A stretch of 64,000 nucleotides of DNA. Origin: an uncultured Planctomycetaceae bacterium. Its GTDB lineage: Bacteria > Planctomycetota > Phycisphaerae > SM23-33. Position 1 is the stretch's first letter. Every line of letters begins with the position of its first letter. Location of the stretch: positions 4,862 through 68,861 of the forward strand of contig CAZVYJ010000009.1 of the NCBI GenBank assembly GCA_964631565.1. The letters are read 5' to 3'. The position numbers and the translations under genes were made by a program. Below are positions 1,989-64,000 of this stretch, piece after piece. Below the pieces are notes generated by a model that was not told where the DNA came from, did not search any database, and saw nothing but the letters and a program-made list of their open reading frames with translations.

Positions 1989-1995
1989 TAAAAAC

Positions 1996-2030: not shown

Positions 2031-2158
2031 AACATGCCGGGGCAGACAAAACGCCTGCTCCGGTTTTTTATGCGCAATGTTTACACGAAGTTTCGCCATC
2101 ACTCAGCCGGCCGGGTTGCAGGCTGCGTTTCAGGCTGGGTTGCAGGTCGTGTTTTAGG

Positions 2159-3862: not shown

Positions 3863-4156
3863 TTCGGCACCCCTGTTCATTTGAAAGGCATTTTACCAGA
3901 ACTCCCCCGCTGGAACAATTCCGGCACCAATGAGGCGTTCGACCTTCCTTGTTGAAAACCAGCGGCACGGGCATCTCCGCAGGACGCTGTGCGTTGCCCG
4001 TGAATTGCCAGGAATGATGACATGCCCCCTGTTGCATCTGCGGCTCCCCTTGCCAGAGGGTTTGCGTTAATTAAAACAACAAACTTACCCGTAACGTCCG
4101 CCTGTGTGCGTGGTTCAACAACAAGCCCATGGCAGCGGGCACGGAGAACCTTGGTT

Positions 4157-6679
4157 ATGACCTGTTTGAGAATTACCGCCGGCATTTCGATGTTATTCTG
4201 CCTTATCGCCTGCCTGACGGGATGCCCAGGAAATAACGACAATATCTCGCCCAATGCAAACAGCTGGCAGCCCTTGACAGCCGACAACCAGCCATATAGC
4301 ATCCCGCAGCCTGTGAATGAACCCGCAAAACTTGAAGGAACTAACAGCATGGCCGCAACACCAGCCCCTGATATTCGCAGCCTTTACAATACAACCCGTG
4401 AGAAAATCGCCGAAATCCGCGCAAACGTCAACCTGGAAGAAAACCCGGCCTACCGGGTCGCGGTCAAGGAGACGGCAAGGACCATAACGCTCAGCCGCGA
4501 GCCTTACAGCATAACGTTCGACCGGAAGTCGGCGATGGTGCGATCCGCCGTCATCGACGGCGTGAAACTTGACGAAGTCATGCTGCCGCACCTGCTGATA
4601 ATCGACGAAAATGGCAAGCCGCAGAAGCAGTCGGAATCGACCGCCGGCGAGCTCAGGGTCCGCCACGAGAAATTCAGCCTGTTCCTGGAAGGATACTTCA
4701 CCATCTGCGGCCGCCGTGTGCCGGTGGTCTATGAAATGGACCGCATGACCGGCACGACGTTCTGCACGATGGACGTGCCCGGCCCGCTGAAGGTCCGGCG
4801 GCTGACGCTGGAGCACTCGCTCGGACGGACGCCGCGCCCGCTGGACACGTTCTACGCCCCGCACCACTATCTCAAGACGTTCAAGCCCTACAAGCCGACC
4901 GTGATCAACGAGCATCGCCCTGACGTGATATTCGAGAAGGACACGATGATGTTCTGGACCGACGGGCACATCGGCATGCAGGTCTATTCGATAACGTGGG
5001 ACAAAAGCAAAGTCCTGCCTGCCGAGAAGAAATACATCTACGGCACGGGGGAAATCCGCGACGGCGCCAGCTGGGCTGACCTGACGTTCATCTCGACCGG
5101 AACGAAGGAAAGCATGCTCCTGCCGGACGGCTACCGGGCGACGTGCGCATTCAGCCCTATGCCATACAAGAAGTGGCGGCCTCTCAGCGATATCGCGTCG
5201 TCGGACTGCGGTTTCGCGCCTAAGGAGGCGCCGGGCTACGAACGCGGCGCAGAAATCGCCGCCGGCCTCAAGCGGTTCGGCCAGGCCGGCACGACGCTGC
5301 TGATACACAACCAGCCGCATCCCTGCTTCGTGCCGCTCGACCCGGACTTCACGCGCTGGCAGGCGGACGAAGCCCGCCGCAACGGCATGAAGATGATTCT
5401 TTACATCGAGCGGTCGTGGGCGCGCGAGGCGGCCCATCCGAAATCGGGCCTGCTGACCGAAGAGGAACTCCTCAACGGGCGGCAGGAACTCAAAAGCCAC
5501 TGGGGCGACAAAGACGGCGGCGCCGGCCGATGGGGCGACCTGCTCACCATGTGCTGCAACTACGAGCCGTGGCGCATCCACCTGCTGACGATGTGCGACT
5601 ACTACGTCGGCACGCTGGGATTCGACGGCATCTACCTCGACACGTCGTTCATCTGCTCGTGCCAGAACACGCGGCACGGCGAAAGCCCCGACGAAAGCAC
5701 GTCGGTCCGCGGCTCAATGATTTTCCAGCAGGACCTGCGGCTGCTGATGGACGACTACGCCCGCAGGAACGGCCGACCCTACATAATCATCAATCACTAC
5801 TGGGATCAGCACGCCGCACCGGTCGCGGGCGTCATCGACTATACGCTGCCCGGCGAGCAGGACGCCAACAAGATGATGAAGACCCTCACGCCGCAGAATT
5901 TCGCCTACGGCTACTCGGCCATCCCGAACGGCGTGAACTCCATGTGGTATACCGCGGGCACGTACGACTACACCTGCCCGCAGATTTACAACGACGCAGC
6001 CGAATGCGGCGGCATGATGTTCGCAGCATGCGCGCCCAACACCGTCGGAATGATGATGCACGTCCGGCACAATCAGCCGGCCGCCCAGTACGGGCTGGAA
6101 GGCTCGACGCCCGTCCACAGGTTCAGCGCCGATTACGACAAGCTGTTCACCGGCGGCGACAGCCGCACCCGGGCCATGATGTATATCAAGGACGACAGCG
6201 CGATGGTGTTCCTCATCAACGACGGCCCGAAAAGCAAAAACACGTCGTTCTCGTTCAGGCATCCACGCGCGTCGTGGAAGAAATGCCTCGTCCTCGACGC
6301 GGCAAACATGACCTGGCAGGTCGTGGACGCCAAGCGAGGAAGAATCGAAATGAGCGGTCTGGACTGCTCCGAAGGCCCGCTGCCGATGATAGTGCGCCCC
6401 TACCCCACGCAGGTCGGCCTGAACTGGTTCGACAACCAGACCCGCAGCGTGAAGGTCGAAGTCTCCGGCACGCAGGTGACCGTGACGGCCCGCGGCGTCG
6501 CAGAATCGGTGAGCGCATGCTACCTCGAGGCCCCCGAAGGAATACAACTGACCCGCATGGGCGTCGTGATTGGCAAGGTCAATCCGAATATCTTCTGCCT
6601 GTCGCTCGCCTACGACCGCAACGGCAGGGCCATGCAGATACTGGAAATCAGCAAGGTCCCGGTTAAACCCAAACGCTGA
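4157..6679 (+). CDS. Large lipoprotein, possibly glycoside-hydrolase-like TIM barrel
   Basis: The track ORF starts at 4022. I prefer ATG 4157 (MTCLRITAGISMLFCLIACLTGC, with lipobox LTGC). The central region (ILYIERSWAREAAH... FDGIYLDTSF...) resembles glycoside-hydrolase-like barrels. That is a weak, by-eye call. The overlapping frames are R/A-rich and spurious. Confidence 0.45.
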   Translation: MTCLRITAGISMLFCLIACLTGCPGNNDNISPNANSWQPLTADNQPYSIPQPVNEPAKLEGTNSMAATPAPDIRSLYNTTREKIAEIRANVNLEENPAYRVAVKETARTITLSREPYSITFDRKSAMVRSAVIDGVKLDEVMLPHLLIIDENGKPQKQSESTAGELRVRHEKFSLFLEGYFTICGRRVPVVYEMDRMTGTTFCTMDVPGPLKVRRLTLEHSLGRTPRPLDTFYAPHHYLKTFKPYKPTVINEHRPDVIFEKDTMMFWTDGHIGMQVYSITWDKSKVLPAEKKYIYGTGEIRDGASWADLTFISTGTKESMLLPDGYRATCAFSPMPYKKWRPLSDIASSDCGFAPKEAPGYERGAEIAAGLKRFGQAGTTLLIHNQPHPCFVPLDPDFTRWQADEARRNGMKMILYIERSWAREAAHPKSGLLTEEELLNGRQELKSHWGDKDGGAGRWGDLLTMCCNYEPWRIHLLTMCDYYVGTLGFDGIYLDTSFICSCQNTRHGESPDESTSVRGSMIFQQDLRLLMDDYARRNGRPYIIINHYWDQHAAPVAGVIDYTLPGEQDANKMMKTLTPQNFAYGYSAIPNGVNSMWYTAGTYDYTCPQIYNDAAECGGMMFAACAPNTVGMMMHVRHNQPAAQYGLEGSTPVHRFSADYDKLFTGGDSRTRAMMYIKDDSAMVFLINDGPKSKNTSFSFRHPRASWKKCLVLDAANMTWQVVDAKRGRIEMSGLDCSEGPLPMIVRPYPTQVGLNWFDNQTRSVKVEVSGTQVTVTARGVAESVSACYLEAPEGIQLTRMGVVIGKVNPNIFCLSLAYDRNGRAMQILEISKVPVKPKR

Positions 6680-6709
6680 TACAAAAACACAGATTCAGAC
6701 AATCATCGC

Positions 6710-6743
6710 AACCCGGCCGGCCCGCATGACCGGCCGGTTTTAT
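6710..6743 (+). terminator. Rho-independent terminator after the lipoprotein gene
   Basis: A cccggccgg-cccgcatga-ccggccgg hairpin followed by TTTTAT. Confidence 0.6.
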
Positions 6744-6834
6744 GTATTCATGTGGGGACAAGTCCGGGCTTTCAAACTTGTAACCTCTGTTCATGCCGCC
6801 TAAAATTCCATAAGCCTCTTATAAGGACAGAGCG

Positions 6835-47947: not shown

Positions 47948-50014
47948 TTACCACTTTGTCAGCAGGTTTGCAGCCTCGGCCGACAGCGGAGATTCCGGGT
48001 AATCCACGGTTATTTTTTTGAGCATTTCGGTGCTCTTTTCCTTTCGGCCGAGCTTTCGATACGACCTGGCGGCAATCATCAGCAGTTCCGCGGCATAATC
48101 GGACCGCGGATTGACCCGTACAAGCGTCTCGGCCTCGATTACGGCGGCGATGTTGCGGCCGCGGGCGAAAAGCTGCCTGGCCTTCAGCAGCGACCAGTAG
48201 CCTTCGAGCTTGTCAGTCGGTATCGCCGCCGCCCAGCTGGCGAGATACTCGTCGGCGGAGGCGTATTCCCGGCGGCGGGTGAAATCCTCGATGCTGCGGG
48301 CGAAATTGCCGCGATGGAACTCCGCCCCGCCGGCTGCGGTGTCGAACTGCATGCCGGCCTGCTCGTAGGAGTTCTTCGCCTTGTCATAGTCGCCCTCGGC
48401 CCGCCGGACGTCGCCGATGCCGATAAGTCCGAGGCGAATCACATGCTTGTCGACCCGCCCCGGATAATTCTCCACGACGTCGCTGAAAATGCTCCCGGCA
48501 CGTTTCGTGTCGCCCAGTTCATCGACAGCAATCTGTCCGGCATAAAGAAGCGCCTTGGCGGAAATATACGGCGCCTTGGCGAGGGCGGCGAGTTTCAGCA
48601 TCGCCTCGACGGCCTGCTCGGGCCTGCCGGAATTGACAAGCGAGGGAGCATAAATCAGTCCGACGCGCCTTATATCGACATCGTCCGCGCTGCTGCGGAG
48701 AACAAACGCATTGCCGGCCTTCAGCAGTTCTTCGTTCATCGCCGCGCAGTCGAACAGAACCACCGCGTTGGCATTGGCCTCGGGAGAAAGTTTCGCGAAA
48801 TCGTATTTCGCCGCGATGCCTGCGTGCATGGCGTTGCTGTCGATATCCCGGTTTATGACGCAGTCCCACGGACGGGCGACGACAATAACATTTGTGCACG
48901 TCAGTTCCCCGACACGGGTTTTTGCAGAGAGTTTCACGGTGTACCGCCCATCGGCGAGATAAACATGCTCGACCTTTTCGCCGGGAGCGGTCTGCCCGTC
49001 GCCAAAGTCCCACTGCCACTGCAGCTCGCCGGCAGTCTTGCCGACAATGTCGGCGGCGAACGTGAAACGCTGGGTGTAGCGGTCGCCGATGAATGTTTCG
49101 CCCGCATGGGTCGGCGTGAAATCCACCGACAGCGTTTTGCCGTACTGCTCCGCCGGCCCGAAGCTCGCCTGAATCACCGGCGCGAAGCTGTTGGCGGCAA
49201 TCGGCCAGATGCGGTCGTCCCCCGGGGACTTCCACGCCGCGACCGCTATTGGATCGCCGTTATTGGTCACGTGCATGTATGTAAGCTTGTGCAGGCCGGA
49301 CTTGAGCTGAACTTTGTTCTGCTTCACCGGAGTATTCTGCGGCCAGTGCGCCCCGCCGTTGTCCACCACCAGCTTGTCGTCTATCAGCAGAAACGACGCG
49401 TTCATGCTCGACGAGCAGAACACATAATCTCCGTCGGCCGGCGCAAAAAACCACGCCGTGTAAAGCGCAGCCAGCGAGGCTTCCGGCCCGAAGGGGTTAT
49501 GGCCGAGGAATATGTTTTCGCGGAAGTCCCGCCCGAACAGCTGTTTTTCGGCGGCGAAAATCTTTTCCGCATCTTCGAGCTTTCCCGGAGGCTGACCCTG
49601 GAACTTCCACATCTCAAGCAGCACGCCGCGTTTTATTTCCAGAGGCCTGGCCGGTCTGGCATTCGGGTTGCCGTAATAGACATGATATTTCCGCACGCCG
49701 TCGCGAACGGCGAACGCAACTTTCGCCGTGTCGCCCGGGCCGGTCATGAGAACCCGCGACGGCATGACATCGCCGTTGGCGGCTACCACGCATATATCGC
49801 TGCCGTCCGGTTTTATATGGCCGCCGGTCGGCATGGTGAAGACGGCTACGTCATCGCCGCCGAAATTGGTCGGCTTTGTTTCAGGAATTGTCACTTCCCT
49901 GCGGAACGGCCACTCGTATTTCCACCATCCCGCAGCCGACGCGTCGGACGCCAGGCAAAACAATGCCGCAGCCGTTACAATCATATGAATTGTTTTTCCC
50001 GACGCAGTAGTCAT
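47948..50014 (-). CDS. Secreted PA14-domain, PKD-domain and TPR-repeat protein
   Basis: ATG 50014 (MTTASGKTIHMIVTAAALFCLASDASAA, a signal peptide) with GGAG upstream. The PA14-like segment is YTAWFFAPADGDYVF. The PKD motif is WQWDFGDGQTAPGEKVEHVY. The C-terminus has TPR repeats. Confidence 0.65.
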   Translation of the reverse strand: MTTASGKTIHMIVTAAALFCLASDASAAGWWKYEWPFRREVTIPETKPTNFGGDDVAVFTMPTGGHIKPDGSDICVVAANGDVMPSRVLMTGPGDTAKVAFAVRDGVRKYHVYYGNPNARPARPLEIKRGVLLEMWKFQGQPPGKLEDAEKIFAAEKQLFGRDFRENIFLGHNPFGPEASLAALYTAWFFAPADGDYVFCSSSMNASFLLIDDKLVVDNGGAHWPQNTPVKQNKVQLKSGLHKLTYMHVTNNGDPIAVAAWKSPGDDRIWPIAANSFAPVIQASFGPAEQYGKTLSVDFTPTHAGETFIGDRYTQRFTFAADIVGKTAGELQWQWDFGDGQTAPGEKVEHVYLADGRYTVKLSAKTRVGELTCTNVIVVARPWDCVINRDIDSNAMHAGIAAKYDFAKLSPEANANAVVLFDCAAMNEELLKAGNAFVLRSSADDVDIRRVGLIYAPSLVNSGRPEQAVEAMLKLAALAKAPYISAKALLYAGQIAVDELGDTKRAGSIFSDVVENYPGRVDKHVIRLGLIGIGDVRRAEGDYDKAKNSYEQAGMQFDTAAGGAEFHRGNFARSIEDFTRRREYASADEYLASWAAAIPTDKLEGYWSLLKARQLFARGRNIAAVIEAETLVRVNPRSDYAAELLMIAARSYRKLGRKEKSTEMLKKITVDYPESPLSAEAANLLTKW

Positions 50015-50101
50015 GACAAACTCCGATTCTATATTGGCATAACGCGGCTTGTCGCGGTTAAATTGCCGCATAACGGAACTGCAAATGAAGCCCAATGTCC
50101 C

Positions 50102-50680
50102 ATGAAACGGTTTGACGGCATAATTTTCGACATGGACGGCACGCTGATCGAGTCGCTGCTGGACTTCGCGGCAATCCGCCGGCACCTTGGGATATCCGAC
50201 GACACCGGCATAATCGAGGGTATCGACGCCATGCCGCCCGACAAGCGCACCGCCGCGGCCGACTGGCTGCTCGAGCAGGAAATGACAGCCGTTCAGAACG
50301 CAACGCTGCTGCCCGGCGTGCATGATTTGCTGGCCGCCTGCAGGAAGGCCGGCCTGAAAACCGCCCTGCTCACGCGCAACGCGCGGCAGGTTATGGAAAC
50401 GGTCATCGAAAAATTCCGCCTGACATTCGACCTCGCATGGTCGCGGGAAAAAGGCCCGATAAAGCCCGAGCCCGACGGCGTGCTGAGGGCGTGCAGGGAC
50501 ATGGGAATTAAACCGCAGCGAACCGTCTGTGTGGGCGACTTCAAATACGATATAATCGCCGCCAACGCTGCCGGCGCGACGAGCATACTGCTGGCGAGGC
50601 GTGACCGGCCCGATTTCGCCGACGACGCCGACTACGTGGTGGCCGACCTGGCGGAACTGTACGAAATACTGGGAATCTGA
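50102..50680 (+). CDS. HAD-superfamily hydrolase
   Basis: Motif I FDMDGTL. Motif III is KPEPD; the sequence there reads EKGPIKPEPD. Motif IV is GDFKYD; the sequence there reads VCVGDFKYDI. The rest of the long track ORF 48314..50680 is antisense to the PA14 gene and spurious. Confidence 0.8.
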   Translation: MKRFDGIIFDMDGTLIESLLDFAAIRRHLGISDDTGIIEGIDAMPPDKRTAAADWLLEQEMTAVQNATLLPGVHDLLAACRKAGLKTALLTRNARQVMETVIEKFRLTFDLAWSREKGPIKPEPDGVLRACRDMGIKPQRTVCVGDFKYDIIAANAAGATSILLARRDRPDFADDADYVVADLAELYEILGI

Positions 50681-51892
50681 ATGGCTTATCTACCCCTGGC
50701 AAACATTCTGCATCACAAGCTGAGAAGCACGCTCAGCGCGGTGGGCATCGGCATCGGCATCTGCATGCTGGTGACGCTGTCCGGCCTGGCGCGAGGCAGC
50801 CTGAACGAAGTCGCCGACCGATGGGAAGCCGTGGACGCCGACCTGATTCTGTTTCCCGGCGGACTGGGCGAAAACCTCATCACGCTCAGCGGCATCGGCC
50901 TGCCGGACAGGGTCGCAGAAGACGCGATAAAAAAACACGGCGATATCGTGCAGCGGGTTACGCCGGTTTTTCTGTGGAACGTGAAGCTCGCCGGGCAGAA
51001 CCATCTGGCAGCCGGCGTCGACCCGGAGCAGTGGCACACGCTGACCGGCGGCAGAAAGTTGCAAGAAGGCAGGCTCTTCGACCCGGAAAACGGATTCTCG
51101 AAATGGATCGAGTCGAAGCTGCTGGCCGCCGGCCATTCGGACGAAGTCATGGATATCACCAGGGCTGATCTTTCCGACCCGGCACATAACGGCCTGGAGC
51201 TGGTTATCGACAGCCGCCTCGCAGCAGCGGGCAATCTGAAAGTCGGAGACACGGTGAATACGGCAAATCACAAATGGCGGATTGTCGGCATCGTCCCGGA
51301 CGGCGGCATGGCGCGGGTTTTCATGCCGCGGCGGACTGCGCAGTTCCTGTTCGGCAGCGGCGACATAACCAAGAGCACGGTGATGTTCGTCAAGCTGCAC
51401 AAGGGCGCCGACGCCGATGCAGCCGCCAGGACGCTCTCCAACCAGCGGCAGGAGGCGATACAGCTGCGACAGTACCGCGACATGCTGCAGGAAAAATTCA
51501 GCATGATGTTCCGCTACGTCGACGCCGTGAACGCCGTCGCGCTTATCATCGCGTTCCTGTTCATCATGATCACGCTTTACACCATAGTCCTGCAGCAGAC
51601 ACGTGAGATAGCGATACTCAAATCGTTCGGCGCGTCGAACAGCCTGATACTTCGCCAGGTGATGGCCGAGTCGGCCATTCTCACCGCAGCAGGATCGGTG
51701 CTGGGCATCGCGATGAGCTTCGCCGCGGCGTGGATAATCCAGACATTCCGGCCGCTGCTCACAGTGAGCATAACGCCCCAGTGGCTGGCAATCGCCGTAG
51801 TGGCCGCCGCTGCCGGCGCAGCCCTGAGCGCAATCTACCCCGCATACCGGGCGACGCGGGTCGACATGGTTTCGGCCCTGACACTGGAGTAA
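50681..51892 (+). CDS. FtsX/MacB-type ABC permease, LolC/E-like
   Basis: N-terminal transmembrane helix, a large periplasmic domain, then a C-terminal three-helix FtsX bundle (ILKSFGASNSLILRQVM...). Confidence 0.8.
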   Translation: MAYLPLANILHHKLRSTLSAVGIGIGICMLVTLSGLARGSLNEVADRWEAVDADLILFPGGLGENLITLSGIGLPDRVAEDAIKKHGDIVQRVTPVFLWNVKLAGQNHLAAGVDPEQWHTLTGGRKLQEGRLFDPENGFSKWIESKLLAAGHSDEVMDITRADLSDPAHNGLELVIDSRLAAAGNLKVGDTVNTANHKWRIVGIVPDGGMARVFMPRRTAQFLFGSGDITKSTVMFVKLHKGADADAAARTLSNQRQEAIQLRQYRDMLQEKFSMMFRYVDAVNAVALIIAFLFIMITLYTIVLQQTREIAILKSFGASNSLILRQVMAESAILTAAGSVLGIAMSFAAAWIIQTFRPLLTVSITPQWLAIAVVAAAAGAALSAIYPAYRATRVDMVSALTLE

Positions 51893-51899
51893 CCGGCAC

Positions 51900-52595
51900 G
51901 TGAACGATACTGATACTGAAAACATTCTGGAAGCTGCGGGCCTGCACAAGTCATTCGGCAAGGGCCGGGCCGCCGTTCACGTGCTTCGCGGGCTTGATCT
52001 GGCTGTCCGGCGCGGCGAATTCCTGGCCGTCATGGGCCCGAGCGGCTGCGGAAAAAGCACGCTGCTGCACGTTCTTGGGCTTATGACGCCGCCGGACAGC
52101 GGAACGATAAGCATCAACGGAAAGCCCGTGGGCAACAGCAGCGCCGCAAGGACGCTGCTGCGGCGAAAAGATATCGGCTTCGTATTTCAGCGTTTCAACT
52201 TGCTCGGCACGCTGACGGCGGCGGATAATGTCGCCGTCTCCCTGCGGGTGCGGGGCATCAGGGGCGACGGCCGCTGCGACGAACTGTTCGGAAAGATGGG
52301 CATCGCCCACGTCGCCGGACGCAAGCCGGGGCAGATGTCCATCGGCGAGCAGCAGCGGGTTGCGGTCGTCAGGGCCATCGCGCACAGGCCCGCCCTGCTG
52401 CTTGCGGACGAACCGACGGGAAACCTGGACTCGGACAACAGCGTCTCGCTGCTGAAACTGTTCAGGCAGATGAACCGCGACGAGGGGCAGACGATTGTAA
52501 TGATTACGCACTCCGCCGAGGCGGCTGCGGCCGCCGACCGCGTCGTGCACATGAAAGACGGGTTGATTCTTGATGAGCGATCATCACATTCTTGA
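51900..52595 (+). CDS. ABC transporter ATP-binding protein, LolD/MacB-type
   Basis: Walker A GPSGCGKST, ABC signature MSIGEQQR, Walker B LLLADEP. Confidence 0.9.
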   Translation: MNDTDTENILEAAGLHKSFGKGRAAVHVLRGLDLAVRRGEFLAVMGPSGCGKSTLLHVLGLMTPPDSGTISINGKPVGNSSAARTLLRRKDIGFVFQRFNLLGTLTAADNVAVSLRVRGIRGDGRCDELFGKMGIAHVAGRKPGQMSIGEQQRVAVVRAIAHRPALLLADEPTGNLDSDNSVSLLKLFRQMNRDEGQTIVMITHSAEAAAAADRVVHMKDGLILDERSSHS

Positions 52596-53355
52596 GCCGC
52601 ACCTGCCCGACGATATAACGGTCAGGCACTGGCTGGCGGCGTACATCGTGATGCTTGCGGCAGCCGCCGTGCCGATGGTCATGCTCATCGCAGCCGACGG
52701 GCTTGGCTGGGAAAACTGGAGGCATGCCCCGCAGAAAACGTTTACCGAGGCAAGTGCGATTATCAAGCTGCTGGGCTTCGCCATCTACATGTCGTTTTGC
52801 TGCACCGTCCTGCCCATGCCCACGAGCTGGATAGTCGCCGCAGTAGCCACGCGCGACGCCGCAGTGGGCGACGGCGTGTGGGACACTGTCGCACTGGTCG
52901 CTGTCGTCGGGGCATTCGCATCCACCGTGGCGAACCTCAACGATTACCACCTGTTCACGTGGATACTCCGCCACAAGAAAATTGCGAAGGTCCGCAACAC
53001 GAAAACCTACCAGAAGGCGGCGGCGTGGTTTTCGAGATCGCCGTTCCTGCTGCTGGTGGTTTTCAACCTCATTCCGATACCTATCGACATCGTCCGGATG
53101 CTCGCCATCACCTACCGCTACCCGCGAGTGCCGTTCGCGGCGGCGAACTTTATCGGCAGATTGATCCGGTATGCGATACTCGCGTTCGTTATATACTGGT
53201 GGAACCTCGGATGGTACGCGGTGGTCGCCCTGCTGGCCCTTGCGGTGGTGCTTGGCGGCGGCAGAGGCGTAATAGCGATGTACAGGCGACTTACCCGGCG
53301 GACAAACGCCGCGGCGGTGAACGTGTCGGAATCAATAGAAACACAGGAGCAGTAA
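52570..53355 (+). CDS. Polytopic inner-membrane protein, possibly DedA/VTT-like
   Basis: About 5-6 transmembrane helices. Its start overlaps the upstream ATPase gene. The family assignment is weak. Confidence 0.45.
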   Translation: MMSDHHILEPHLPDDITVRHWLAAYIVMLAAAAVPMVMLIAADGLGWENWRHAPQKTFTEASAIIKLLGFAIYMSFCCTVLPMPTSWIVAAVATRDAAVGDGVWDTVALVAVVGAFASTVANLNDYHLFTWILRHKKIAKVRNTKTYQKAAAWFSRSPFLLLVVFNLIPIPIDIVRMLAITYRYPRVPFAAANFIGRLIRYAILAFVIYWWNLGWYAVVALLALAVVLGGGRGVIAMYRRLTRRTNAAAVNVSESIETQEQ

Positions 53356-53357
53356 GC

Positions 53358-54242
53358 ATGAAATTTTTCGTTATAACACTCGCGATATTCGCACTGCCGC
53401 TGGCATGCGTGTCAGCCGGCGACAAAACGGAAACAACTTCAACCACCCAGCCGGCAACAGACGCCGATAACGCAGCAAAAACCGATGAAAACACGGAAAA
53501 TCCGACCACCGCGCCGGAAGCGGAAATAACTCCCGAGGCCAAGGAAATTCTCGACAGGCTCGAGAAGGCCGGCGACAAGTACAAAACCCTCAAGGCTGAC
53601 ATCGATTACACCGTCGTCATGACGCAGCTGGGCGATACCGACAAGCGGACCGGCTGGGTCGCCTTCCAGCAGAAAACCAAGGACTCCCCGGCGAAATTCC
53701 GCGTCCAGTTCGCAACCAGGCAGCTCGGCGAAGGCGCCGCCTTCCGCGAAAAGGAAGATTACGCGTTCAACGGCTACTGGCTGACCGTCGCGAAGCATAA
53801 AATCCGCGAGATAACGAAATACGAGATTTGCAAAAAAGGCGACGAAGTGGACGTTCTGACAATCGGCAAGGGGCCGTTCCCGATACCGTTCGGGCAGAAG
53901 GCCGCCGACGTGATGAAATACTGCGAAGTCACCACGCGCCCGCTGGAAAAAGGCGAGCCGGAAAAAACCAGCTACCTGAAGCTCGCCCCACGCAAGGAAT
54001 GCAAAGAGGATTTGAACTTCACACAGCTCGAAATGTGGGTGAACGACAAATACCTGCCCGTCCGCATCGTCAGCCGCGACAAGAACAAGGACATCACAAC
54101 CGTCGTCTTCAGCAAAATCGAAACTGACGTCACGCTCGACAAGGACGTCTTCAATATTCCCGTCCCGGCCGGCTGGCAGTCACACGAGCAGCCGCTCGAT
54201 AATAAGCAGTCCGACGGCTCGACCAAACCTGACAAGGAATAA
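53358..54242 (+). CDS. LolA-like periplasmic protein (lipoprotein-carrier / outer-membrane lipoprotein-sorting fold)
   Basis: ATG 53358 with AGGAG upstream. Signal peptide. The length and an alternating hydrophobic beta-strand pattern of the LolA/LppX type run through WVAFQQKTKDSPAKFRVQFA...YWLTVAKHK. The call is by eye. Confidence 0.5.
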   Translation: MKFFVITLAIFALPLACVSAGDKTETTSTTQPATDADNAAKTDENTENPTTAPEAEITPEAKEILDRLEKAGDKYKTLKADIDYTVVMTQLGDTDKRTGWVAFQQKTKDSPAKFRVQFATRQLGEGAAFREKEDYAFNGYWLTVAKHKIREITKYEICKKGDEVDVLTIGKGPFPIPFGQKAADVMKYCEVTTRPLEKGEPEKTSYLKLAPRKECKEDLNFTQLEMWVNDKYLPVRIVSRDKNKDITTVVFSKIETDVTLDKDVFNIPVPAGWQSHEQPLDNKQSDGSTKPDKE

Positions 54243-54248
54243 CCGACA

Positions 54249-57122
54249 ATGACTCTCCCCCGCCTCGCAAGCGTTACAGCGGTCGTGATGTTTCTTTCAA
54301 TCATCGGCCCGGCCGACTTCGCGTTCGCCCAGCAGGCCGAAGACACCCGGCCGCTTGCCGAGCAGCCTTACATCGGGCTGCGGTTCGAGGATCATCAGCC
54401 CACCGGCGCATGCCTTGTAACGTGGGTTCTGCCCGGCCCGCTGTTCGGCGAGAAAGACCCGGCCCCGCTGGTTAACAGCGGCGACCTGATACTTAAGGTG
54501 GACGGCAAGAACCTCAAGGCCGACGAACTCCAGAAATACGTCGCGGCCAAAAAGCCCGGCGACGAGATGACGCTCACCGTCCGCTTCACGAAGATGCCGC
54601 CGAACACATACCCGTTCGCGCCGGGCGAAGGCACGGAAACGAAGGACCTGAAAATCAGGCTGGCCGCCCGCGCCGACTGGGCAGGACCGATTTCATTCCC
54701 ACGCCAAAAATATCTTCCACTCAAACCGGAAACATTGCTGGACCCAGCCAAAACGTTCAGCTTCGAAGCTCTCGTCATGCAAAAAGCCGGAGAGAACAAT
54801 CTCACCGACGCTTACAACAAGCTCTGCGGCGTGCTGAAGGAAGCCCAGAGCACGACCGTCGGCTACAACAACCTGGCCCGCGTCGCATATCCGTTTTACT
54901 ACCCGCTGCGGATGAGCGAGCTTCAGGAAGAGATAACCGCCCCGCTCGCCGATTACGCGAAGGATCCGTCCGGCATATGCAGCTACGCCGCAAAGATGCT
55001 CGACCTCAGTGCATACAAAACCAAGAATACGGAAAAGGCCAACATGTCCATTCCTCGCGATGCGCTGAAGTTTTCGGCAAAACAGGTCGCCGCGGCCAAC
55101 GAATACCTTCGCAAGGCATTCGAAAAAATTCCCGCCGACCACCGGGCCACGCTGGCCGAGGACATCGACACGCTTGTCGCCGGGCTGCCCGCCACGGTCT
55201 ACGTGGCCGGCCACAAAAACCCCGCCCGCATGATAAAAACTCTCCAGGCGAGCATGTCGATTGATTTCAGCTCTTTAATACTGGCCGCCGGTGAAATGTC
55301 GGAGCTTATACAACGCGGCACACCGCCGGCGAAGGACACCAAAACTGTCGAAATTCCGCAGGAAATGCAGAACGCCGTCACCGGCGACGTGCTGGACATC
55401 GTGCAGATTGACGGCCGATGGTACGTCTACGGCGGCTTCGGGGCGAATACATACGACATGTCGAAGATAACCGGTGTAATCGACGCAGGCGGCGACGACA
55501 CGTACAACTATCCGCAACAGGCGCCGTGGACTGTCCGCTTCATCATCGACATGGCCGGCAACGACCGTCACATCGGCTCAGCCGGTGGACCCGCTGCGGC
55601 GCTGTGTGGAATAAGCCTGCTGGTCGATTACGCCGGCGATGATTTCTACGCCGGCCAGAAACCATGCTGCGGTGCGGGCATCATGGGCGTCGGCATGCTG
55701 ATAGATTACGACGGCAACGACGAATATCAATCGCTGTACTGGTCGCAGGGCGCCGGGTTCTACGGGTTCGGCCTCATCGCCGACCTCGGCTACGGGCGCG
55801 ACCTGTACCAGTCGCAGATTATGAGCCAGGGCATCGGCGGGCCGCGCGGGCTCGGGCTGATTCTCGAACAGGGAGGCGAAGATTACTACCGCGTCAACGG
55901 ACCGGTGAAATCGTCCTACGGAACGCCCGGCGTCTACAACGCATGCAGCCAGGGCTTCGGGTTCGGCTGCCGGACTTACGAATCCGGCGGCATCGGCATC
56001 ATCGAAGACCTTGAGGGCAACGACCGCTACGACGCCGGCGAGATGGCGCAGGGCGGCGGATATTACTACGGGCTTGGCATTCTCCATGACCGCAAGGGCA
56101 ACGACAGCTACACCGGCGTCCGCTGGGCGCAGGGCTTCGGCTGCCATCAGGCGCACGGCATACTCGCCGACGACGAGGGCGATGACACGTACTACGCGCT
56201 GCAGGTCGCCATTCAGGGGTCTGCGTGGGACATCGCAGTCGGGGCACTTATCGACCGGGCCGGCAACGATTCATACCAGTGCGGCGCCGGCCTGTCGCAG
56301 GGTGGAGCTTCCATGCAGGGTGTTGCATATCTCATGGACCTCGCCGGGCGCGACAGATACATCGCACCGCCCTACGCCTCGCAGGGCAAGAGCGGCGGCA
56401 ACAGCTACCACTACGCACGGACCGGCGCGATGAGCTTTTCGGTCCTGTTCGACTCCGGCGGCGATGACGACCTTTACTCCACCGGCCGGCCCAACAACAA
56501 AACTATTTCCGTCGGCGAGCCGGATGAAAAGAACCCGGCCGAAAGTCCGCTGTACGGCCTGTTCATAGACACAGCGGGCGACGACCTGGCCGTCATGACA
56601 TTCAAGGATAGATTCCCCCGCTCGGTCAAGTGCGACAGTTCCGGACACATCACCAGCCTCGGCCTGCGCAAAGAAACTCTCACCACAGAGGCTCTCACTG
56701 AAGCCGACTTTGATATCATAGCCTCTCTGACACACCTTGAACTGCTCGCACTGAGTGAATCGAACGTCTCCGACGAGACCGTTGCGAAGCTCATGAATCT
56801 CAGGAGCCTGAAGCGGTTGTACCTGGGCGACACCGCCGTTTCTGACACCGGGTTGCGCGAACTCGCCGCCCTGTCCGAAATGGAATGGCTGGAACTTGAC
56901 AATACGAAGATTACCGGCAAAACCCTCCCGGCAATAACAAAAATGAGTAAAATTCAGCATGTGGGAATCAGCACGACGGCTGTTACCGAAGCCGATATCA
57001 GAGACCTCGCATGGCCGCTTTCGCTCAGGACTCTGGTCGTGTCACAAAATATGATTTCCAAGGCTACAATCGAGAAACTAAAGAAAGACAACCCCAATCT
57101 GGAAGTCATAATTTCAGATTGA
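54249..57122 (+). CDS. Secreted 957-aa protein: PDZ-like N-terminus, about twelve ~27-residue GND-x-Y/QG-x-G repeats (putative beta-solenoid), and C-terminal leucine-rich repeats
   Basis: Signal peptide. A PDZ-like segment (GDLILKVDGKNLKADELQKYVAAKKPGDEMTLTV). Repeats such as GNDRHIGSAGGPAAALCGISLLVDYA / GDDFYAGQKPCCGAGIMGVGMLIDYD / GNDEYQSLYWSQGAGFYGFGLIADLGY. LRRs of the form LxxLxLxxTxVSD (LELLALSESNVSDETVAKLMNLRSLKRLYLGDTAVSDTGLRELAALSEMEWLELDNTKITG). Confidence 0.6.
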   Translation: MTLPRLASVTAVVMFLSIIGPADFAFAQQAEDTRPLAEQPYIGLRFEDHQPTGACLVTWVLPGPLFGEKDPAPLVNSGDLILKVDGKNLKADELQKYVAAKKPGDEMTLTVRFTKMPPNTYPFAPGEGTETKDLKIRLAARADWAGPISFPRQKYLPLKPETLLDPAKTFSFEALVMQKAGENNLTDAYNKLCGVLKEAQSTTVGYNNLARVAYPFYYPLRMSELQEEITAPLADYAKDPSGICSYAAKMLDLSAYKTKNTEKANMSIPRDALKFSAKQVAAANEYLRKAFEKIPADHRATLAEDIDTLVAGLPATVYVAGHKNPARMIKTLQASMSIDFSSLILAAGEMSELIQRGTPPAKDTKTVEIPQEMQNAVTGDVLDIVQIDGRWYVYGGFGANTYDMSKITGVIDAGGDDTYNYPQQAPWTVRFIIDMAGNDRHIGSAGGPAAALCGISLLVDYAGDDFYAGQKPCCGAGIMGVGMLIDYDGNDEYQSLYWSQGAGFYGFGLIADLGYGRDLYQSQIMSQGIGGPRGLGLILEQGGEDYYRVNGPVKSSYGTPGVYNACSQGFGFGCRTYESGGIGIIEDLEGNDRYDAGEMAQGGGYYYGLGILHDRKGNDSYTGVRWAQGFGCHQAHGILADDEGDDTYYALQVAIQGSAWDIAVGALIDRAGNDSYQCGAGLSQGGASMQGVAYLMDLAGRDRYIAPPYASQGKSGGNSYHYARTGAMSFSVLFDSGGDDDLYSTGRPNNKTISVGEPDEKNPAESPLYGLFIDTAGDDLAVMTFKDRFPRSVKCDSSGHITSLGLRKETLTTEALTEADFDIIASLTHLELLALSESNVSDETVAKLMNLRSLKRLYLGDTAVSDTGLRELAALSEMEWLELDNTKITGKTLPAITKMSKIQHVGISTTAVTEADIRDLAWPLSLRTLVVSQNMISKATIEKLKKDNPNLEVIISD

Positions 57123-57476: not shown

Positions 57477-58277
57477 TTGGCTATTATGGAATTACCGGTT
57501 ACACAGCATGGCAGTTTCAACACTAACCGTGAAGAAGCGGTTGTTTTGCCGTTTCCGGGTGTTTTTGATGTTCTGAATGAGGTACTCGGCGGGAGCGCCC
57601 CAAGCGATTTCGCCATGGAGATATCCCGCGCGGAAGATAACGAGCGGCAGAGAATCGCAGAAGATCTGCACGATTGCCTTGGGCAGAATATCGCGGCGCT
57701 CAGCCTGAATCTCCAGCTTCTCAACGGCAATAATCTGCCGCCCGATCAGGCCAATATCCTGACCCGGTCGCTTGCTCTTGTCAGGCAGCTCAGCCAGGAC
57801 ATAAGAACGTTTACGTTTGAGCTTTGTCCGCCGACACTGTACGAGCAGGGTATCTCAGCCGCCCTCGCACACCTGGTGGAGAATTTCCGGAAAAGATACT
57901 CGCCGCACATACAGTATCACGACGACAGCCGGCCCAAGAACATGCCGCCCGGAAAAGCGGCTTTCCTGTATCGCTCGGTTCGCGAACTGCTCATTAACGC
58001 AGTCAAACATGGCAAAGCGGACAATATCACCATCATTACCCGCACCGTCGGGCATCATGTCGAAGCAGAAGTGGAAGATGACGGCATGGGTTTCGACAGT
58101 TCGTTTGAACTCAGCCGATCCGAGAAAACCGGCTTCGGACTTTTCAGCATATCCCGCCGCCTGAAAAACTTTGGCGGGCGTCTGGATATCGACTCCGCTC
58201 CGAAGCGGGGAACAAAAATCAAAATACGACTCCCAATCGCCGCAAAAGCAGGCCGCGGAGAATTTTCAAAGTTATGA
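57477..58277 (+). CDS. Cytoplasmic histidine kinase, HisKA_3 / NarX-LiaS type, with no sensor domain
   Basis: ERQRIAEDLHDCLGQNIAAL is a HisKA_3 H-box. HATPase motifs NAVKHGKA, DDGMGF and GFGLFSI. No transmembrane segment. Confidence 0.8.
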   Translation: MAIMELPVTQHGSFNTNREEAVVLPFPGVFDVLNEVLGGSAPSDFAMEISRAEDNERQRIAEDLHDCLGQNIAALSLNLQLLNGNNLPPDQANILTRSLALVRQLSQDIRTFTFELCPPTLYEQGISAALAHLVENFRKRYSPHIQYHDDSRPKNMPPGKAAFLYRSVRELLINAVKHGKADNITIITRTVGHHVEAEVEDDGMGFDSSFELSRSEKTGFGLFSISRRLKNFGGRLDIDSAPKRGTKIKIRLPIAAKAGRGEFSKL

Positions 58278-58924
58278 CCACCAGAATACTGCTTGCAGAC
58301 GACCACACGATGGTAAGAGAAGGCATAAGCGCCTTGCTGAACAATCAACCCGGCATGACTGTCGTCGGGGAGGCGTCAAACGGCCGCGATGCGCTGCAAA
58401 TGGCCCAATCCCTCCTGCCCGATGTGGTCATCATGGACGTGTCCATGCCGGACATGAACGGAGTCAGCGCCACCGAAAAGCTCTCCGAAGTGTGCCCCGC
58501 CGCCCGCGTTCTGGCGCTGTCAATGCATACCGACCGGGATAACGTCACGCGGATGCTTCGGGCCGGCGCATCGGGATACGTGGTCAAGACCTGCGACGTT
58601 AACGAAATTCTTCGCGCCATAACCACTGTCCGCGCCGGCAGAACATACCTCAGTCCCGAAATAACCGGAACCGTGGTGGAAGATTACGTCTCGTCAAAAA
58701 ACACATCAAAGCCGGACCTGGACGATCTGACATCCAGAGAACGTGAAATCCTCCAGATGATAGCGGAAGGCAAAAGTTCCAAGCAGATAGGAACGATACT
58801 GCATATCAGTCCGAGAACCGCCGACTCGCATCGTCAGCGTATTATGGACAAACTCAACCTCTATTCGCTGGCGGAGTTGACCAAATATGCGATTCGGGCA
58901 GGACTTACATCCCTCAACACCTGA
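58274..58924 (+). CDS. NarL/FixJ-family response regulator (receiver plus LuxR-type HTH)
   Basis: Receiver motifs LLADDH, D in DVVIMD, and LSMHT. The LuxR HTH reads LTSREREILQMIAEGKSSKQIGTILHISPRTADSHRQRIMDKL. The gene overlaps the kinase stop. Confidence 0.9.
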   Translation: MTTRILLADDHTMVREGISALLNNQPGMTVVGEASNGRDALQMAQSLLPDVVIMDVSMPDMNGVSATEKLSEVCPAARVLALSMHTDRDNVTRMLRAGASGYVVKTCDVNEILRAITTVRAGRTYLSPEITGTVVEDYVSSKNTSKPDLDDLTSREREILQMIAEGKSSKQIGTILHISPRTADSHRQRIMDKLNLYSLAELTKYAIRAGLTSLNT

Positions 58925-59057
58925 CGGCAAACTCTGAATAAGCCTAAAGATAGTCATTCTCGCATCATTAATTGCGAATTCCGGCAATTACGCCTTTCCT
59001 TATATCTACCGATATCAGAAATACCTGCGGTCCGCAGTGCCAGAAAAGGACAATGCA

Positions 59058-60233
59058 ATGAGTGACTACAACGGGGAAACATCTCAAACCACAGGGCTGC
59101 TGAGGCATCTCCTCAGCATAGGAGCGAAACTGCACGGGTCCAGAACGCGGCAGGAAATGCTGGAAACCATCCTCTCGCAAGCCAGGAAATTCACGGGCGC
59201 CGAAGCTGGCAGCCTTTATCTCGTACAGAGAAATCAACTCCGATTCGTGGCCGTCCAGAACGAAACCATGGACACCTCGAACATTGTCCGCCACCTGTTC
59301 GGCCAGACCATAGCGATCTCGCCGGAGTCGCTGGCGGGGTTTGCAGCCCTGACCGGCCGAATCATAAATATCCCGGACAGCTATAATCTTCCTGAAGGCA
59401 CTCCATTCAGAATCAATCGCGAACTGGACGCCAAAACAGGTTATTCCGCCAGGAGCATACTCGCCATCCCGCTGAAATGCCCTGACGGCGTGTGCGTAGG
59501 CGTCATGCAGCTGTTCAATCGCCGCGATGCGAACGGCGGCAATCAGCCTTTCGAAGAAATAACCGATGCGTTCATCGAGGGCCTGGTTTCAACCGCAGCA
59601 ATCGCAGTGCATAATCTCAGCCTGCAGGAACAGCTCCGCAGCGTTCATCTGAACACGATATTCCGCCTGTCGACAATAGCCGAATATCGCGATGCGGACA
59701 CAGGCAACCATATTCAGCGTGTCAGCCGGATTTCGGAACTCGTCGCACGAGAACTCTCGATGCCGCCGGACCAGGTTGAACTCATAAAGTACGCCAGCCC
59801 GATGCACGATGTCGGCAAGGTAGCCGTTCCCGACGCCATACTGTTCAAACCCGGCCACCTTACCACCGAGCAGCGGAAGATCATGGAAAAACATACGATC
59901 ATAGGCGGCGAAATCTTCGAAGGCGCCGATGATGACGTACTGGTAATGGCGCAGGATGTCGCCCTGCATCATCATGAAAGATGGGACGGCAAAGGGTATC
60001 CCGACGGGCTTGCGGGAGATCAGATAGCCCTGCCAAGCCGTATTGTCGGTCTCGCCGACGTTTTCGACGCCGTTGTCTCCAGACGATGCTACAAACAGGC
60101 ATTTTCGCTTGATGTGGCGCTGGATATTCTGGATCAGGACAGCGGCAAACACTTCGATCCGGCCGTGGTCAAGGCATTCATGCAGGTGCTCGAAAGCGTG
60201 CTGGAATCCTATCCCGAACTGCGAGCCGCCTGA
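59058..60233 (+). CDS. GAF-domain HD-GYP phosphodiesterase (c-di-GMP)
   Basis: N-terminal GAF (AGSLYLV...RFVAVQN). HD motif SPMHDVGKVAVPD. HD-GYP signature HHERWDGKGYPDGL. Confidence 0.85.
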   Translation: MSDYNGETSQTTGLLRHLLSIGAKLHGSRTRQEMLETILSQARKFTGAEAGSLYLVQRNQLRFVAVQNETMDTSNIVRHLFGQTIAISPESLAGFAALTGRIINIPDSYNLPEGTPFRINRELDAKTGYSARSILAIPLKCPDGVCVGVMQLFNRRDANGGNQPFEEITDAFIEGLVSTAAIAVHNLSLQEQLRSVHLNTIFRLSTIAEYRDADTGNHIQRVSRISELVARELSMPPDQVELIKYASPMHDVGKVAVPDAILFKPGHLTTEQRKIMEKHTIIGGEIFEGADDDVLVMAQDVALHHHERWDGKGYPDGLAGDQIALPSRIVGLADVFDAVVSRRCYKQAFSLDVALDILDQDSGKHFDPAVVKAFMQVLESVLESYPELRAA

Positions 60234-62108: not shown

Positions 62109-64000
62109 ATGGATTGCAAAAACAAATCATACGACGTTCTCAACGCACTCAGCGCCGAGATTCTTGCCGCAGACCCTGCCGACAAGGACGCCGTCGTCGG
62201 CATAGGCTCGTCTCTGGAAGGTTTTCTTGACAAGGCCGACGGCATGCCGGCTGAGCTTGAAAAACTCTTTTCCGTCGCCCTCGAGCTGCTCCAGTGCGTT
62301 TATGGCGAAAGCCTGCCCGACCCTGCAGCGGCAATGGAAGCGGTCGCAACCGCAGTAAGCGCCGCAGCCGAATTTCTCGCCGACGGCGGCGACAGTCAAT
62401 CGCTGCAGGCCGTCGCGGCAACCATGCAAAAAATGCTCTCGCTCTCCAAAGACGGCGACGCCCCTGCCGCCGCCAGCCAGCCCGACAATCAGCCACAGAA
62501 GCCGCAGGCGACAAACGCCCCGGCACAAAACACAACCTCGGAAACCAATCTGCTTCCGGGCGATACCGACATGGACCTGCTGAGCGAGTTCATAGTCGAA
62601 TGTCTCGATCACATCGCCGCAGCCGAGGCCGCCCTGCTGGAACTCGAAAGCAACCCTGACGACGCCGAGCAGATAAACACTATTTTCCGCGCGTTCCACA
62701 CCATCAAAGGCACGTCGGGCTTCCTCGGCCTGAACCTCGTCCAGAACCTGGCCCACAAGGCCGAAAACCTGCTGGACCGCGCCCGCGACGGCGAAATAAA
62801 AATCCAGGGCGGATACGCCGACCTGGCGCTGAAATCCAGCGACGCCCTGCGGACGATGATATCCGGTCTCGAAGGCGTCAAGCCGGGCGATAAGCTCACG
62901 CCGCCGGCATACTATGACGACCTGATGACCCAGCTTGCCGATCCGGAAGCCGCCGGAATCAGCGATGAAGCCAATGTCGAAGACATGCGGCTGGGCGACA
63001 TCCTCGTCGGCAAGGGTCAGGCAAAGCGATCCCAGGTTGAAGCGGCAGCCAAAAAACAAGGCTCGCAGCGCATAGGCCAGGTGCTCGTCGAAAACAATAT
63101 CGCAACCGCCGGCGAAGTTATCGACGCCGTCCGCACGCAGAAAAAAATATCCGGCCGCCAGACCGGCGAAAACACCATTCGCGTCGGAACCGACCGGCTC
63201 GACAATCTGGTCAACATGGTGGGCGAACTGGTGATAGCCCATTCGATGGTCACGCAGGACCCCGACGTATGCAACAACGCAAGCCCCAGACTCGCCAGAA
63301 ACGTATCGCACGCCGGCAAGATCATTCGGGAACTCCAGGACCTTGCCATGTCGCTGCGCATGGTGCCGCTGAAGGGAACGTTCCAGAAAATGAACCGCCT
63401 TGTCCGCGATCTCGCCCGCAAGGCAGGCAAGAGCGTCCAGTTCATCACGGAAGGCGAAGAAACCGAAATAGACCGGACAATGGTTGAAACGCTCGGCGAC
63501 CCGCTGGTTCACATGATGCGCAACGCCGTGGATCACGGTATCGAAACCGCAGAGGTGCGGAAGGCCAGAGGCAAGAGCGGCACGGGAACAATCACGCTGA
63601 GAGCCTACCACTCCGCCGGCAACGTCGTCATCGAACTGCAGGACGACGGCAAGGGTCTCGATAAAGACAAGATCATCGCCAAGGCCGTCGAACGCGGGCT
63701 GATCGAATCCGCCAAGGACATGACTGAAAGCGAAGTGTTCGCGCTTATCTTCCAGGCGGGCTTCTCGACCGCCGAAAAGGTAACCGACATATCAGGCCGC
63801 GGCGTGGGAATGGATGTGGTGAAACGCGGCATCGAATCGCTGCGAGGAAAAATCGAACTTGCGTCAAAACTCAACAAAGGCACGACCTTCACGGTGCGCC
63901 TGCCGCTGACGATGGCGATTACGGACGCCATGCTCATACGCGTCGGCAGCGAGCGGTACCTGCTGCCGACAATCTCCATCGAGCGCAGCTTCCGTCCGGA
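62109..64000 (+). CDS. cheA: Chemotaxis histidine kinase CheA, 5' portion; the gene continues past the right edge of the window
   Basis: The track does not list it because there is no stop codon in the window. The frame from ATG 62109 gives the Hpt motif FHTIKGTSGFLG, a long P2/linker, the dimerisation region, N-box HMMRNAVDHGIE, G1 DDGKGLD and G2 GRGVGMDVV. The track's 62127..63611 minus ORF is antisense junk. Confidence 0.85.
   Translation, partial: MDCKNKSYDVLNALSAEILAADPADKDAVVGIGSSLEGFLDKADGMPAELEKLFSVALELLQCVYGESLPDPAAAMEAVATAVSAAAEFLADGGDSQSLQAVAATMQKMLSLSKDGDAPAAASQPDNQPQKPQATNAPAQNTTSETNLLPGDTDMDLLSEFIVECLDHIAAAEAALLELESNPDDAEQINTIFRAFHTIKGTSGFLGLNLVQNLAHKAENLLDRARDGEIKIQGGYADLALKSSDALRTMISGLEGVKPGDKLTPPAYYDDLMTQLADPEAAGISDEANVEDMRLGDILVGKGQAKRSQVEAAAKKQGSQRIGQVLVENNIATAGEVIDAVRTQKKISGRQTGENTIRVGTDRLDNLVNMVGELVIAHSMVTQDPDVCNNASPRLARNVSHAGKIIRELQDLAMSLRMVPLKGTFQKMNRLVRDLARKAGKSVQFITEGEETEIDRTMVETLGDPLVHMMRNAVDHGIETAEVRKARGKSGTGTITLRAYHSAGNVVIELQDDGKGLDKDKIIAKAVERGLIESAKDMTESEVFALIFQAGFSTAEKVTDISGRGVGMDVVKRGIESLRGKIELASKLNKGTTFTVRLPLTMAITDAMLIRVGSERYLLPTISIERSFRP

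Follow-up and report, generated by a model that had tools for sequence, protein, structure and literature searches.

An open reading frame (ORF) at positions 54249-57122 (+ strand) of the window, a 64,000-nucleotide stretch of contig CAZVYJ010000009.1 from an uncultured Planctomycetaceae bacterium, encodes a 957-aa protein whose conserved core is predicted to be an all-alpha domain packed on a 13-coil beta-helix of about 400 aa. This core defines a large family, found mainly in Phycisphaerae and other Planctomycetota, that is missing from Pfam, NCBIfam, and the Protein Data Bank (PDB). We regard the beta-helix as a beta-solenoid whose acidic corner is RTX-like and which belongs to a large undescribed family, and not yet as a new mechanism. 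An initial annotation, made from the letters alone, had reported a secreted 957-aa protein with an unrecognized repeat array between a PDZ-like head and a leucine-rich repeat (LRR) tail. Translation showed that the ORF is open and intact and agreed with the reported length and position. The features of the gene are as follows.

54249-54329, + strand: predicted signal peptide, residues 1-27 (MTLPRLASVTAVVMFLSIIGPADFAFA, cleaved before QQ), Sec type with an A-x-A cleavage site, read from the translation.
54360-54668, + strand: PDZ domain, residues ~38-140, with the carboxylate-binding loop Y-I-G-L-R-F; recognized by Pfam PDZ_2 and Foldseek, predicted local distance difference test score (pLDDT) >90.
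54762-55307, + strand: predicted all-alpha domain, residues 172-353, nine helices; family-wide, and packed on the beta-helix in the AlphaFold2 model.
55389-56573, + strand: predicted beta-helix domain, residues 381-775, with an N-terminal cap and 13 coils of ~27 residues, each with a D7/G10/D12/Y14 corner.
55950-56231, + strand: near-invariant stripe of non-repeat residues, Q568, R575, Y605, H633, (W660), and D661, in coils 7-10; candidate binding or active site.
56570-56630, + strand: putative fusion junction, where DNA homology with a 79%-identical relative stops after ...GLFID (D774).
56631-57122, + strand: LRR tail and stop codon, residues ~795-957, about six repeats of 24-25 residues.

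The repeat array was located with a regular expression for the motif G-[NDGRE]-D, which matched 13 times, at residues 414, 437, 463, 489, 516, 543, 590, 617, 644, 672, 700, 737, and 777. Successive motifs were separated by 23, 26, 26, 27, 27, 47, 27, 27, 28, 28, 37, and 40 residues; a gap of 26-28 residues was the commonest, and the three longer gaps (47, 37, and 40) represent insertions. A hidden Markov model (HMM) of the unit was then built with 27 positions from 127 units of homologues only, the query's own units being excluded to avoid circularity. This HMM recovered all 13 units of the query at 173.7 bits, and the highest score among 200 composition-preserving shuffles of the region was 7.5 bits, confirming that the repeat array exceeds chance. 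Units 1 and 13 are partial, and three units carry insertions. The tandem repeats of the initial annotation were thus real, but their number and extent required correction, from about 12 units in residues 410-750 to 13 units over residues ~405-790. The profile of 135 units read G-h-G-h-L-h-D-x-x-G-(N/D)-D-x-Y-x6-Q-G-x-G-x3, with D7 present in 97% of the units, G10 in 99%, [ND]11 in 81%, D12 in 98%, Y14 in 92%, Q21 in 65%, and G22 in 81%. The consensus proposed earlier agreed with this profile position by position, although it had been started at another position of the unit. Tandem Repeats Finder detected no tandem repeat in the DNA of the gene, indicating that the repeat units are ancient and have diverged. 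No paralogue of the 957-aa protein was found elsewhere in the window.

AlphaFold2 (AF2), run on the whole protein with 105 homologues, gave a pLDDT of 86 overall and of ~98 over residues 381-775, where the repeats were modeled as a beta-helix, in line with the beta-solenoid suspected from the periodicity. A second run on core residues 145-790 gave a pLDDT of 95.4 and a predicted template modeling score (pTM) of 0.95, and this high pTM suggests that the helical domain and the beta-helix form one rigid unit. According to DSSP assignments on the model, each coil has a strand of six residues (positions 2-7), a turn at positions 8-12, a strand of three residues (positions 13-15), and then a return that is rich in Gly and includes a short bridge (positions 24-25). 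On the sequence, the long strand would correspond to h-G-h-L-h-D, the tight turn to x-x-G-N/D, the short strand to D-x-Y, and the return to Q-G-x-G. The ~200-aa helical domain (residues 172-353), which lies between the PDZ domain and the repeats and was absent from the initial annotation, matched nothing in Pfam or the PDB.

The PDZ-like head was also substantiated. In this protein, residues 38-140 matched Pfam PDZ_2 at an E value of 1.2e-4, which is under the gathering score, whereas PDZ_2 matches in homologues reached E 4e-24, well over the cut-off. Foldseek aligned the domain to the PDZ domains of HtrA and CtpA with a probability of 1.00 and a template modeling (TM) score to the target of 0.65, and the carboxylate-binding loop was present. 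Export, which had been proposed in the initial annotation, was supported by the signal peptide in the translation and by a hydrophobic N-terminal segment in 89 of 99 full-length homologues. Judged from these sequence features, the protein is modular and appears to be exported by the Sec route.

Searches against known families placed the repeat region in none of them. Pfam (E<=10) and NCBIfam assigned nothing to residues 380-790, and when 20 diverse family members were scanned against Pfam at E<=1, none of them matched a beta-helix or repeat family. Two profiles, built for the complete domain and for the single 27-residue unit, likewise had 0 matches among PDB sequences at E<=10. When the whole and core models were compared with the PDB by Foldseek, useful scores were obtained for the PDZ domain alone. 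The best match to the helix was region IV of MpAFP, the ice-binding adhesin of Marinomonas primoryensis (3p4g; E 0.67, TM 0.20/0.37, root mean square deviation 9.5 A), which was not significant, and the best match in a viral model library had an E value of 0.8. The top-ranking matches to the helix were all Ca2+-bound solenoids, namely MpAFP (3p4g), RsaA, the CyaA RTX domain, and alkaline protease, although none of them was significant. These results agree with the earlier statement that the region maps to no named family, and neither the lenient hmmscan of 20 members nor the two PDB profile searches assigned it to an established family such as PbH1 or DUF4097.

Individual candidates were also rejected. 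DUF4097, Pmp (PF02415), and the pentapeptide repeats had no Pfam match in the query or in the 20 relatives; the period of 26-28 residues carries another consensus, Pmp being defined by GGA[ILV]/FxxN and the pentapeptide repeats by a 5-residue period. Membership of the PbH1 or pectate-lyase-like families (PF13229, PF05048, PF12708) found support in neither a family HMM match nor a significant fold match. A protease, a reading prompted by the PDZ domain, was rejected because no HExxH motif and no invariant Ser were present; there was no peptidase family match either.

The core could still be a very divergent member of a known beta-helix superfamily, such as the pectate-lyase-like/PbH1 proteins, the AlgE/AlgG epimerases, or the RTX-type beta-rolls, that is invisible to HMMER and Foldseek. 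Foldseek is weak on repetitive solenoids, and the low-ranked matches included pectate-lyase-superfamily, right-handed beta-helix viral, and RTX proteins. In addition, the R/Y/H/D set of the stripe would presumably suit the chemistry of a uronate lyase or epimerase. However, a 27-residue coil with one D-x-x-G-N-D-x-Y corner differs from the ~22 residues of PbH1 and the 9/18 residues of RTX, the Pfam scan of 20 members and the PDB profiles were negative, and every fold match had an E value of at least 0.67 and a TM score of at most 0.37. We consider this explanation distinctly improbable.

Comparison with characterized proteins showed that the domain is most like the Ca2+-bound solenoids, namely MpAFP region IV and the RTX beta-rolls, yet it departs from them in its period, its secretion signal, and the lack of an HMM match. 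MpAFP region IV is a single-chain solenoid of 13 coils with the turn G-N-D-x-(hydrophobic) and one Ca2+ per coil (PMC3492233). The present protein shares with MpAFP, which is extracellular, a single-chain solenoid of 13 coils and the G-N-D-x-u turn. In contrast, the coils of MpAFP have 19-21 residues (xGTGNDxuxuGGxuxGxux) instead of 27, and no sequence-profile match links the two. MpAFP is furthermore a giant adhesin secreted by a type I secretion system (T1SS), whereas the present protein carries a Sec signal and includes a helical domain as partner of the solenoid.

The G-x-D-x-U of the RTX nonapeptide (positions 4-8; PF00353, found in alkaline protease, CyaA, and RsaA) resembles G10-N/D11-D12-x13-Y14 of the present unit; both kinds of repeat are rich in Gly and Asp, and RTX proteins are among the weak fold matches. 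RTX repeats, however, make two turns per 18 residues, whereas one turn per 27 residues occurs here and the GG of the first half is replaced by D-x-x. The array was not assigned to RTX/HemolysinCabind (PF00353): the tandem GGxGxDxUx was not found, and the HMM matched neither the query (E<=10) nor the 20 relatives (E<=1). RTX proteins are secreted by a C-terminal T1SS signal without an N-terminal signal; here an N-terminal Sec-type peptide is predicted, and most members end right after the helix.

The pectate-lyase-like helices (PbH1/CASH; Beta_helix, NosD, Pectate_lyase_3) are likewise exported bacterial proteins with a long parallel beta-helix in a single chain, and the enzymes among them have a conserved polar patch localized on one face, which is a further likeness to the present domain. 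Their coil of ~22 residues carries another signature, though, and their fold matches had only E>2 and TM<=0.25. The closest likeness of the PDZ domain was to the PDZ-bearing periplasmic proteases (HtrA/DegP, CtpA/Prc, and RseP), which follow the same plan of a PDZ domain joined to a larger exported core; unlike in those proteases, no protease domain or catalytic motif was found here.

The family is large. A search with the full protein returned 108 relatives, and among the scored candidates the helix profile recognized 3,134 clusters (90% identity). When 1.84 billion representatives were scanned exhaustively with HMMER, at least 4,510 clusters (50% identity) matched at E<=1e-3, 2,677 of them at E<=1e-30. 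In all but one of the best 150 of these 4,510 matches, the domain was a single end-to-end stretch of ~400 residues, and a helix length of ~400 aa was also found in nearly all of the 105 first-round relatives. This constant length indicates a fixed domain, not an expandable array, which qualifies the initial annotation, whose unassigned beta-solenoid stands. Members originated from metagenome-assembled genomes of Phycisphaerae/Phycisphaerales, other Planctomycetota, Bryobacterales, Zixibacteria, and Armatimonadota, with most in Phycisphaerae/Planctomycetota; a scan of genome contigs with the single protein returned one Armatimonadota locus. Where source names were given, they were "hypothetical" or "PDZ domain-containing".

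A typical member has ~770 aa and ends a few residues past the helix. N-terminal PDZ domains (one or two) and C-terminal HEAT repeats were the fusion partners detected, and a few first-round relatives carried other annotations (FG-GAP/VCBS, DUF3471, and the source name "CAP domain-containing protein"). No catalytic domain was found fused to family members. Stand-alone HEAT-repeat proteins were also encoded near family members in three loci (L007, 5795-6664; L008, 13291-14256; L009, 13554-15062). HEAT repeats nearby in some loci and fused in others may reflect a split/fused partner relation or the mere abundance of HEAT in Planctomycetota.

Across 106 sequences, conservation of >=85% was restricted, Gly aside, to the D7/D12/Y14 ladder in every coil and to P219, Q568, R575, Y605, H633, and D661. 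P219 was the sole such residue of the helical domain, and the five residues Q568, R575, Y605, H633, and D661 were 92-98% conserved; R575, Y605, H633, and D661 were invariant in 20 sequences with identity down to 29%. In the repeat register, Y605, H633, and W660/D661 fall on positions 25-26 of three successive coils, and Q568 and R575 fall on the same corner of the preceding coil, so that these residues would make up one unbroken stripe, the sole candidate for a binding or active site. There are 41 Asp in the beta-helix, and its net charge is -28. Two Asp bracket each four-residue turn, which would give 26 stacked carboxylates over 13 coils. Such a stack is hard to place without counter-ions, and the turn resembles that of RTX and MpAFP, so a Ca2+ ladder is to be expected; in the MpAFP coil (xGTGNDxu...) and the RTX nonapeptide (GGxGxDxUx), Ca2+ is bound in the shared turn (PMC3492233).

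From these data we propose the following mechanism. The Asp pairs flanking every turn would form an acidic ladder along one edge of the helix, and by analogy with the G-x-D-x-U half of the RTX nonapeptide this ladder would bind Ca2+. Bound Ca2+ would rigidify the beta-helix outside the cytoplasm, after export. The stripe Q568, R575, Y605, H633, and D661 in coils 7-10 would be the working surface, a predicted ligand-binding groove or active site, with an envelope or extracellular polymer as a candidate target. The variable end modules (PDZ in this protein and many members, HEAT in others, and LRR in this protein alone) may be interchangeable adaptors that dock the core on protein partners. Taken as a whole, a Ca2+-stabilized helix with a binding or catalytic stripe and PDZ/LRR/HEAT adaptors seems to us a plausible reading, for which the chances of being right and wrong are about equal.

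Several observations weigh against this proposal. The AF2 models are ion-free, and the Ca2+ ladder rests on Asp conservation, composition, and analogy. Even at E<=10, the unit profile matched none of the RTX and MpAFP chains of the PDB, HemolysinCabind was unmatched in the query and its relatives at the thresholds given above, and the Foldseek similarities were non-significant. The stacking of the conserved residues was deduced from the repeat register, not from distances. Finally, neither a catalytic domain or motif nor a conserved gene neighbor hinting at a substrate was recognized, and the conserved polar residues could be structural.

A passive role is an alternative: the protein could be a structural or adhesive solenoid, a rigid exported rod that displays the PDZ and LRR modules, comparable to RTX adhesins and chlamydial Pmp proteins, in which the helix has no ligand or catalytic site. 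The fused modules (PDZ, HEAT, and LRR) are all protein-interaction domains, no catalytic family was detected, and the nearest fold matches include adhesins and S-layer proteins (MpAFP, Awp1, and RsaA). Adhesin stalks differ in repeat number, however, whereas the coil number is fixed across thousands of members of this family, and a local patch of near-invariant R, Y, H, and D is kept at 29% overall identity. Moreover, the Pfam and NCBIfam scans revealed no anchor (beta-barrel or sortase motif), and the secretion signal is N-terminal and not of the T1SS C-terminal kind. We regard a passive rod as rather doubtful. A bolder extension of the Ca2+-stabilized helix is that the core constitutes a new family of Ca2+-dependent enzymes (e.g., a lyase, an epimerase, or a hydrolase), with an acidic envelope glycan or peptidoglycan as substrate and R575, Y605, H633, and D661 as catalytic residues. 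Its function in the envelope would then be near-universal and single-copy in Phycisphaerae and other Planctomycetota, with the PDZ, HEAT, or LRR modules delivering it to substrates or regulators. This extension is speculative, and we judge it unlikely.

The C-terminal LRR block was verified by phmmer, which matched the tail to FLS2, ERL1, and internalins (E 5e-11 to 1e-5), and by several weak Pfam LRR matches. The low AF2 confidence in this tail is due to the alignment, which holds no homologues there. The two flanking modules described in the initial annotation are thus both present, but the LRR tail is not a family feature: it occurred in this gene and in 0 of the 81 related, distinct loci whose 3' end is complete. 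The closest relative is 79% identical (89% in the helix) and has its stop three codons past ...GLFID, and DNA homology with it ends at ~56570, at residue D774. The G+C content at third codon positions (GC3) is 0.80 for the beta-helix but 0.62 for the LRR tail, a level like that of the downstream histidine kinase and response regulator genes (0.60-0.66). The end of homology, the drop in GC3, and the absence from relatives together indicate that the LRR tail is a lineage-specific addition, most simply explained by a replacement of the 3' end of the gene in this lineage. The GC3 of 0.60-0.66 continues through the histidine kinase (57477-58277), a LuxR-type response regulator (58274-58924), and a GAF-HD gene (59037-60233), and the LRR tail and the downstream signaling genes may have arrived together.

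The family comprises thousands of members, is concentrated in a phylum with a poorly understood cell envelope, and has no representative in Pfam, NCBIfam, or the PDB. The model is very confident and has distinctive features, namely coils of 27 residues, an Asp corner like that of RTX, and a helical partner domain that is obligate. Defining the family would replace the recurrent labels "hypothetical protein" and "PDZ domain-containing protein" in Planctomycetota genomes and would provide a short, testable list of candidate functional residues. If the Ca2+ reading is true, one more type of solenoid would be added to the Ca2+-binding repeats. The gene also illustrates how cores gain adaptor modules, the LRR domain having apparently been added by a recent swap of the 3' end. 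At present, the beta-helix stands as a well-delimited domain of unknown function and not as a new mechanism, and it merits a family definition and a structure.

The genes upstream, neighbors on the same strand but not conserved partners, were annotated with Pfam and NCBIfam.

50681-54242, + strand: upstream same-strand genes, comprising the following four.
50681-51892, + strand: FtsX/MacB-type permease.
51900-52595, + strand: ABC ATPase.
52570-53355, + strand: DedA/VTT-like membrane protein, 261 aa, multi-pass.
~53358-54242, + strand: weakly LolA-like exported protein, ~294 aa.

A HAD hydrolase gene is also among the upstream genes on this strand. The gene under study was correctly placed just after the LolA-like gene: 6 nucleotides separate the end of the upstream ORF (54242) from the ATG (54249). 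Only the C-terminal part of the upstream protein resembled LolA, and only weakly; the Pfam match had an E value of 9e-4, and TIGR00547 scored 28.7 bits (E 7.8e-7), below its cut-off of 112. The mechanical ORF at 52797-54242 (+ strand) has 481 aa from a TTG; the 296-aa orthologue in locus L004 places the true start near 53358, and the protein then begins with MKFFVITLAIFALPLAC..., a possible lipoprotein signal. The ORF at 52570-53355, which was left out of the cluster in the initial annotation, overlaps the 3' end of the ATPase gene by 26 nucleotides; its L004 orthologue (E 4e-123) has a Pfam VTT/DedA domain, and the ORF in the window was unmatched in NCBIfam.

Whether orthologues are always linked to the FtsX/ABC/LolA-like genes was asked in the initial annotation, and the answer was negative. 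The upstream gene order was kept in the closest relative only. Among 42 distinct loci with >=4 kb upstream, an FtsX-type gene occurred in two, namely that of the closest relative and that of a distant member, where the pair is divergent; a LolA-like or VTT gene was present in none of them except the closest relative. When all ORFs lying within 6 kb were clustered de novo for 83 distinct loci, no conserved operon partner emerged, and no neighbor family was present in more than 15 loci. The commonest neighbors were BrkB/YihY (15 loci), a pseudouridine synthase (13), an unannotated ORF cluster (11), and BcrAD_BadFG (8), which points to ordinary lineage-level synteny and not to a functional module. 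These results show that the FtsX/ABC/LolA-like genes are neighbors by local synteny and not as a trait of the family.

The protein might nevertheless work in the periplasm with the FtsX/MacB-type ABC transporter and LolA-like protein encoded next to it, either as their partner or as their cargo, comparable to NosD with NosFY or to MacB/Lol substrates. The short same-strand gap to the LolA-like gene, the lack of a terminator-like site between the two genes on the + strand, the arrangement kept in the 79%-identical relative, and the divergent FtsX-ABC pair beside the distant member would all be compatible with such a partnership. Against it stand the 2 of 42 loci with an FtsX-type gene, the restriction of the LolA-like and VTT genes to the closest relative, and the lack of a widespread neighbor family; in addition, FtsX-type transporters are common in these genomes. 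We consider this partnership very improbable, although co-transcription with the upstream genes is possible in this genome. A component of a Lol/MacB-type export system was rejected, given the linkage in 2 of 42 loci and the weak LolA similarity of the neighbor. A lead toward peptidoglycan recycling, suggested by a Mur ligase gene upstream and a BadF/BcrA-type kinase gene downstream in locus L005, was dropped since it concerned 2-8 loci only.

The distant member (P0049, 643 aa) lies in locus L009, where the neighboring genes at 776-6823 encode a 691-aa Beta_helix/Chlam_PMP-type protein and a duplicated MacB_PCD/FtsX permease with its ABC ATPase. These genes are divergent to the family gene, the sole further FtsX adjacency found. 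Elsewhere in the window, a 494-aa ORF at 62127-63611 (- strand) had no Pfam match at E<=1e-3. At 47948-50680, long ORFs overlap on opposite strands; the minus-strand ORF (47948-50323) encodes a PA14/PKD/TPR protein, and in the 788-aa plus-strand ORF the last ~190 residues alone match HAD hydrolases. The true HAD gene thus probably starts near 50102, as in L004 (192 aa), and the remaining ORF is likely a shadow of the minus-strand gene.

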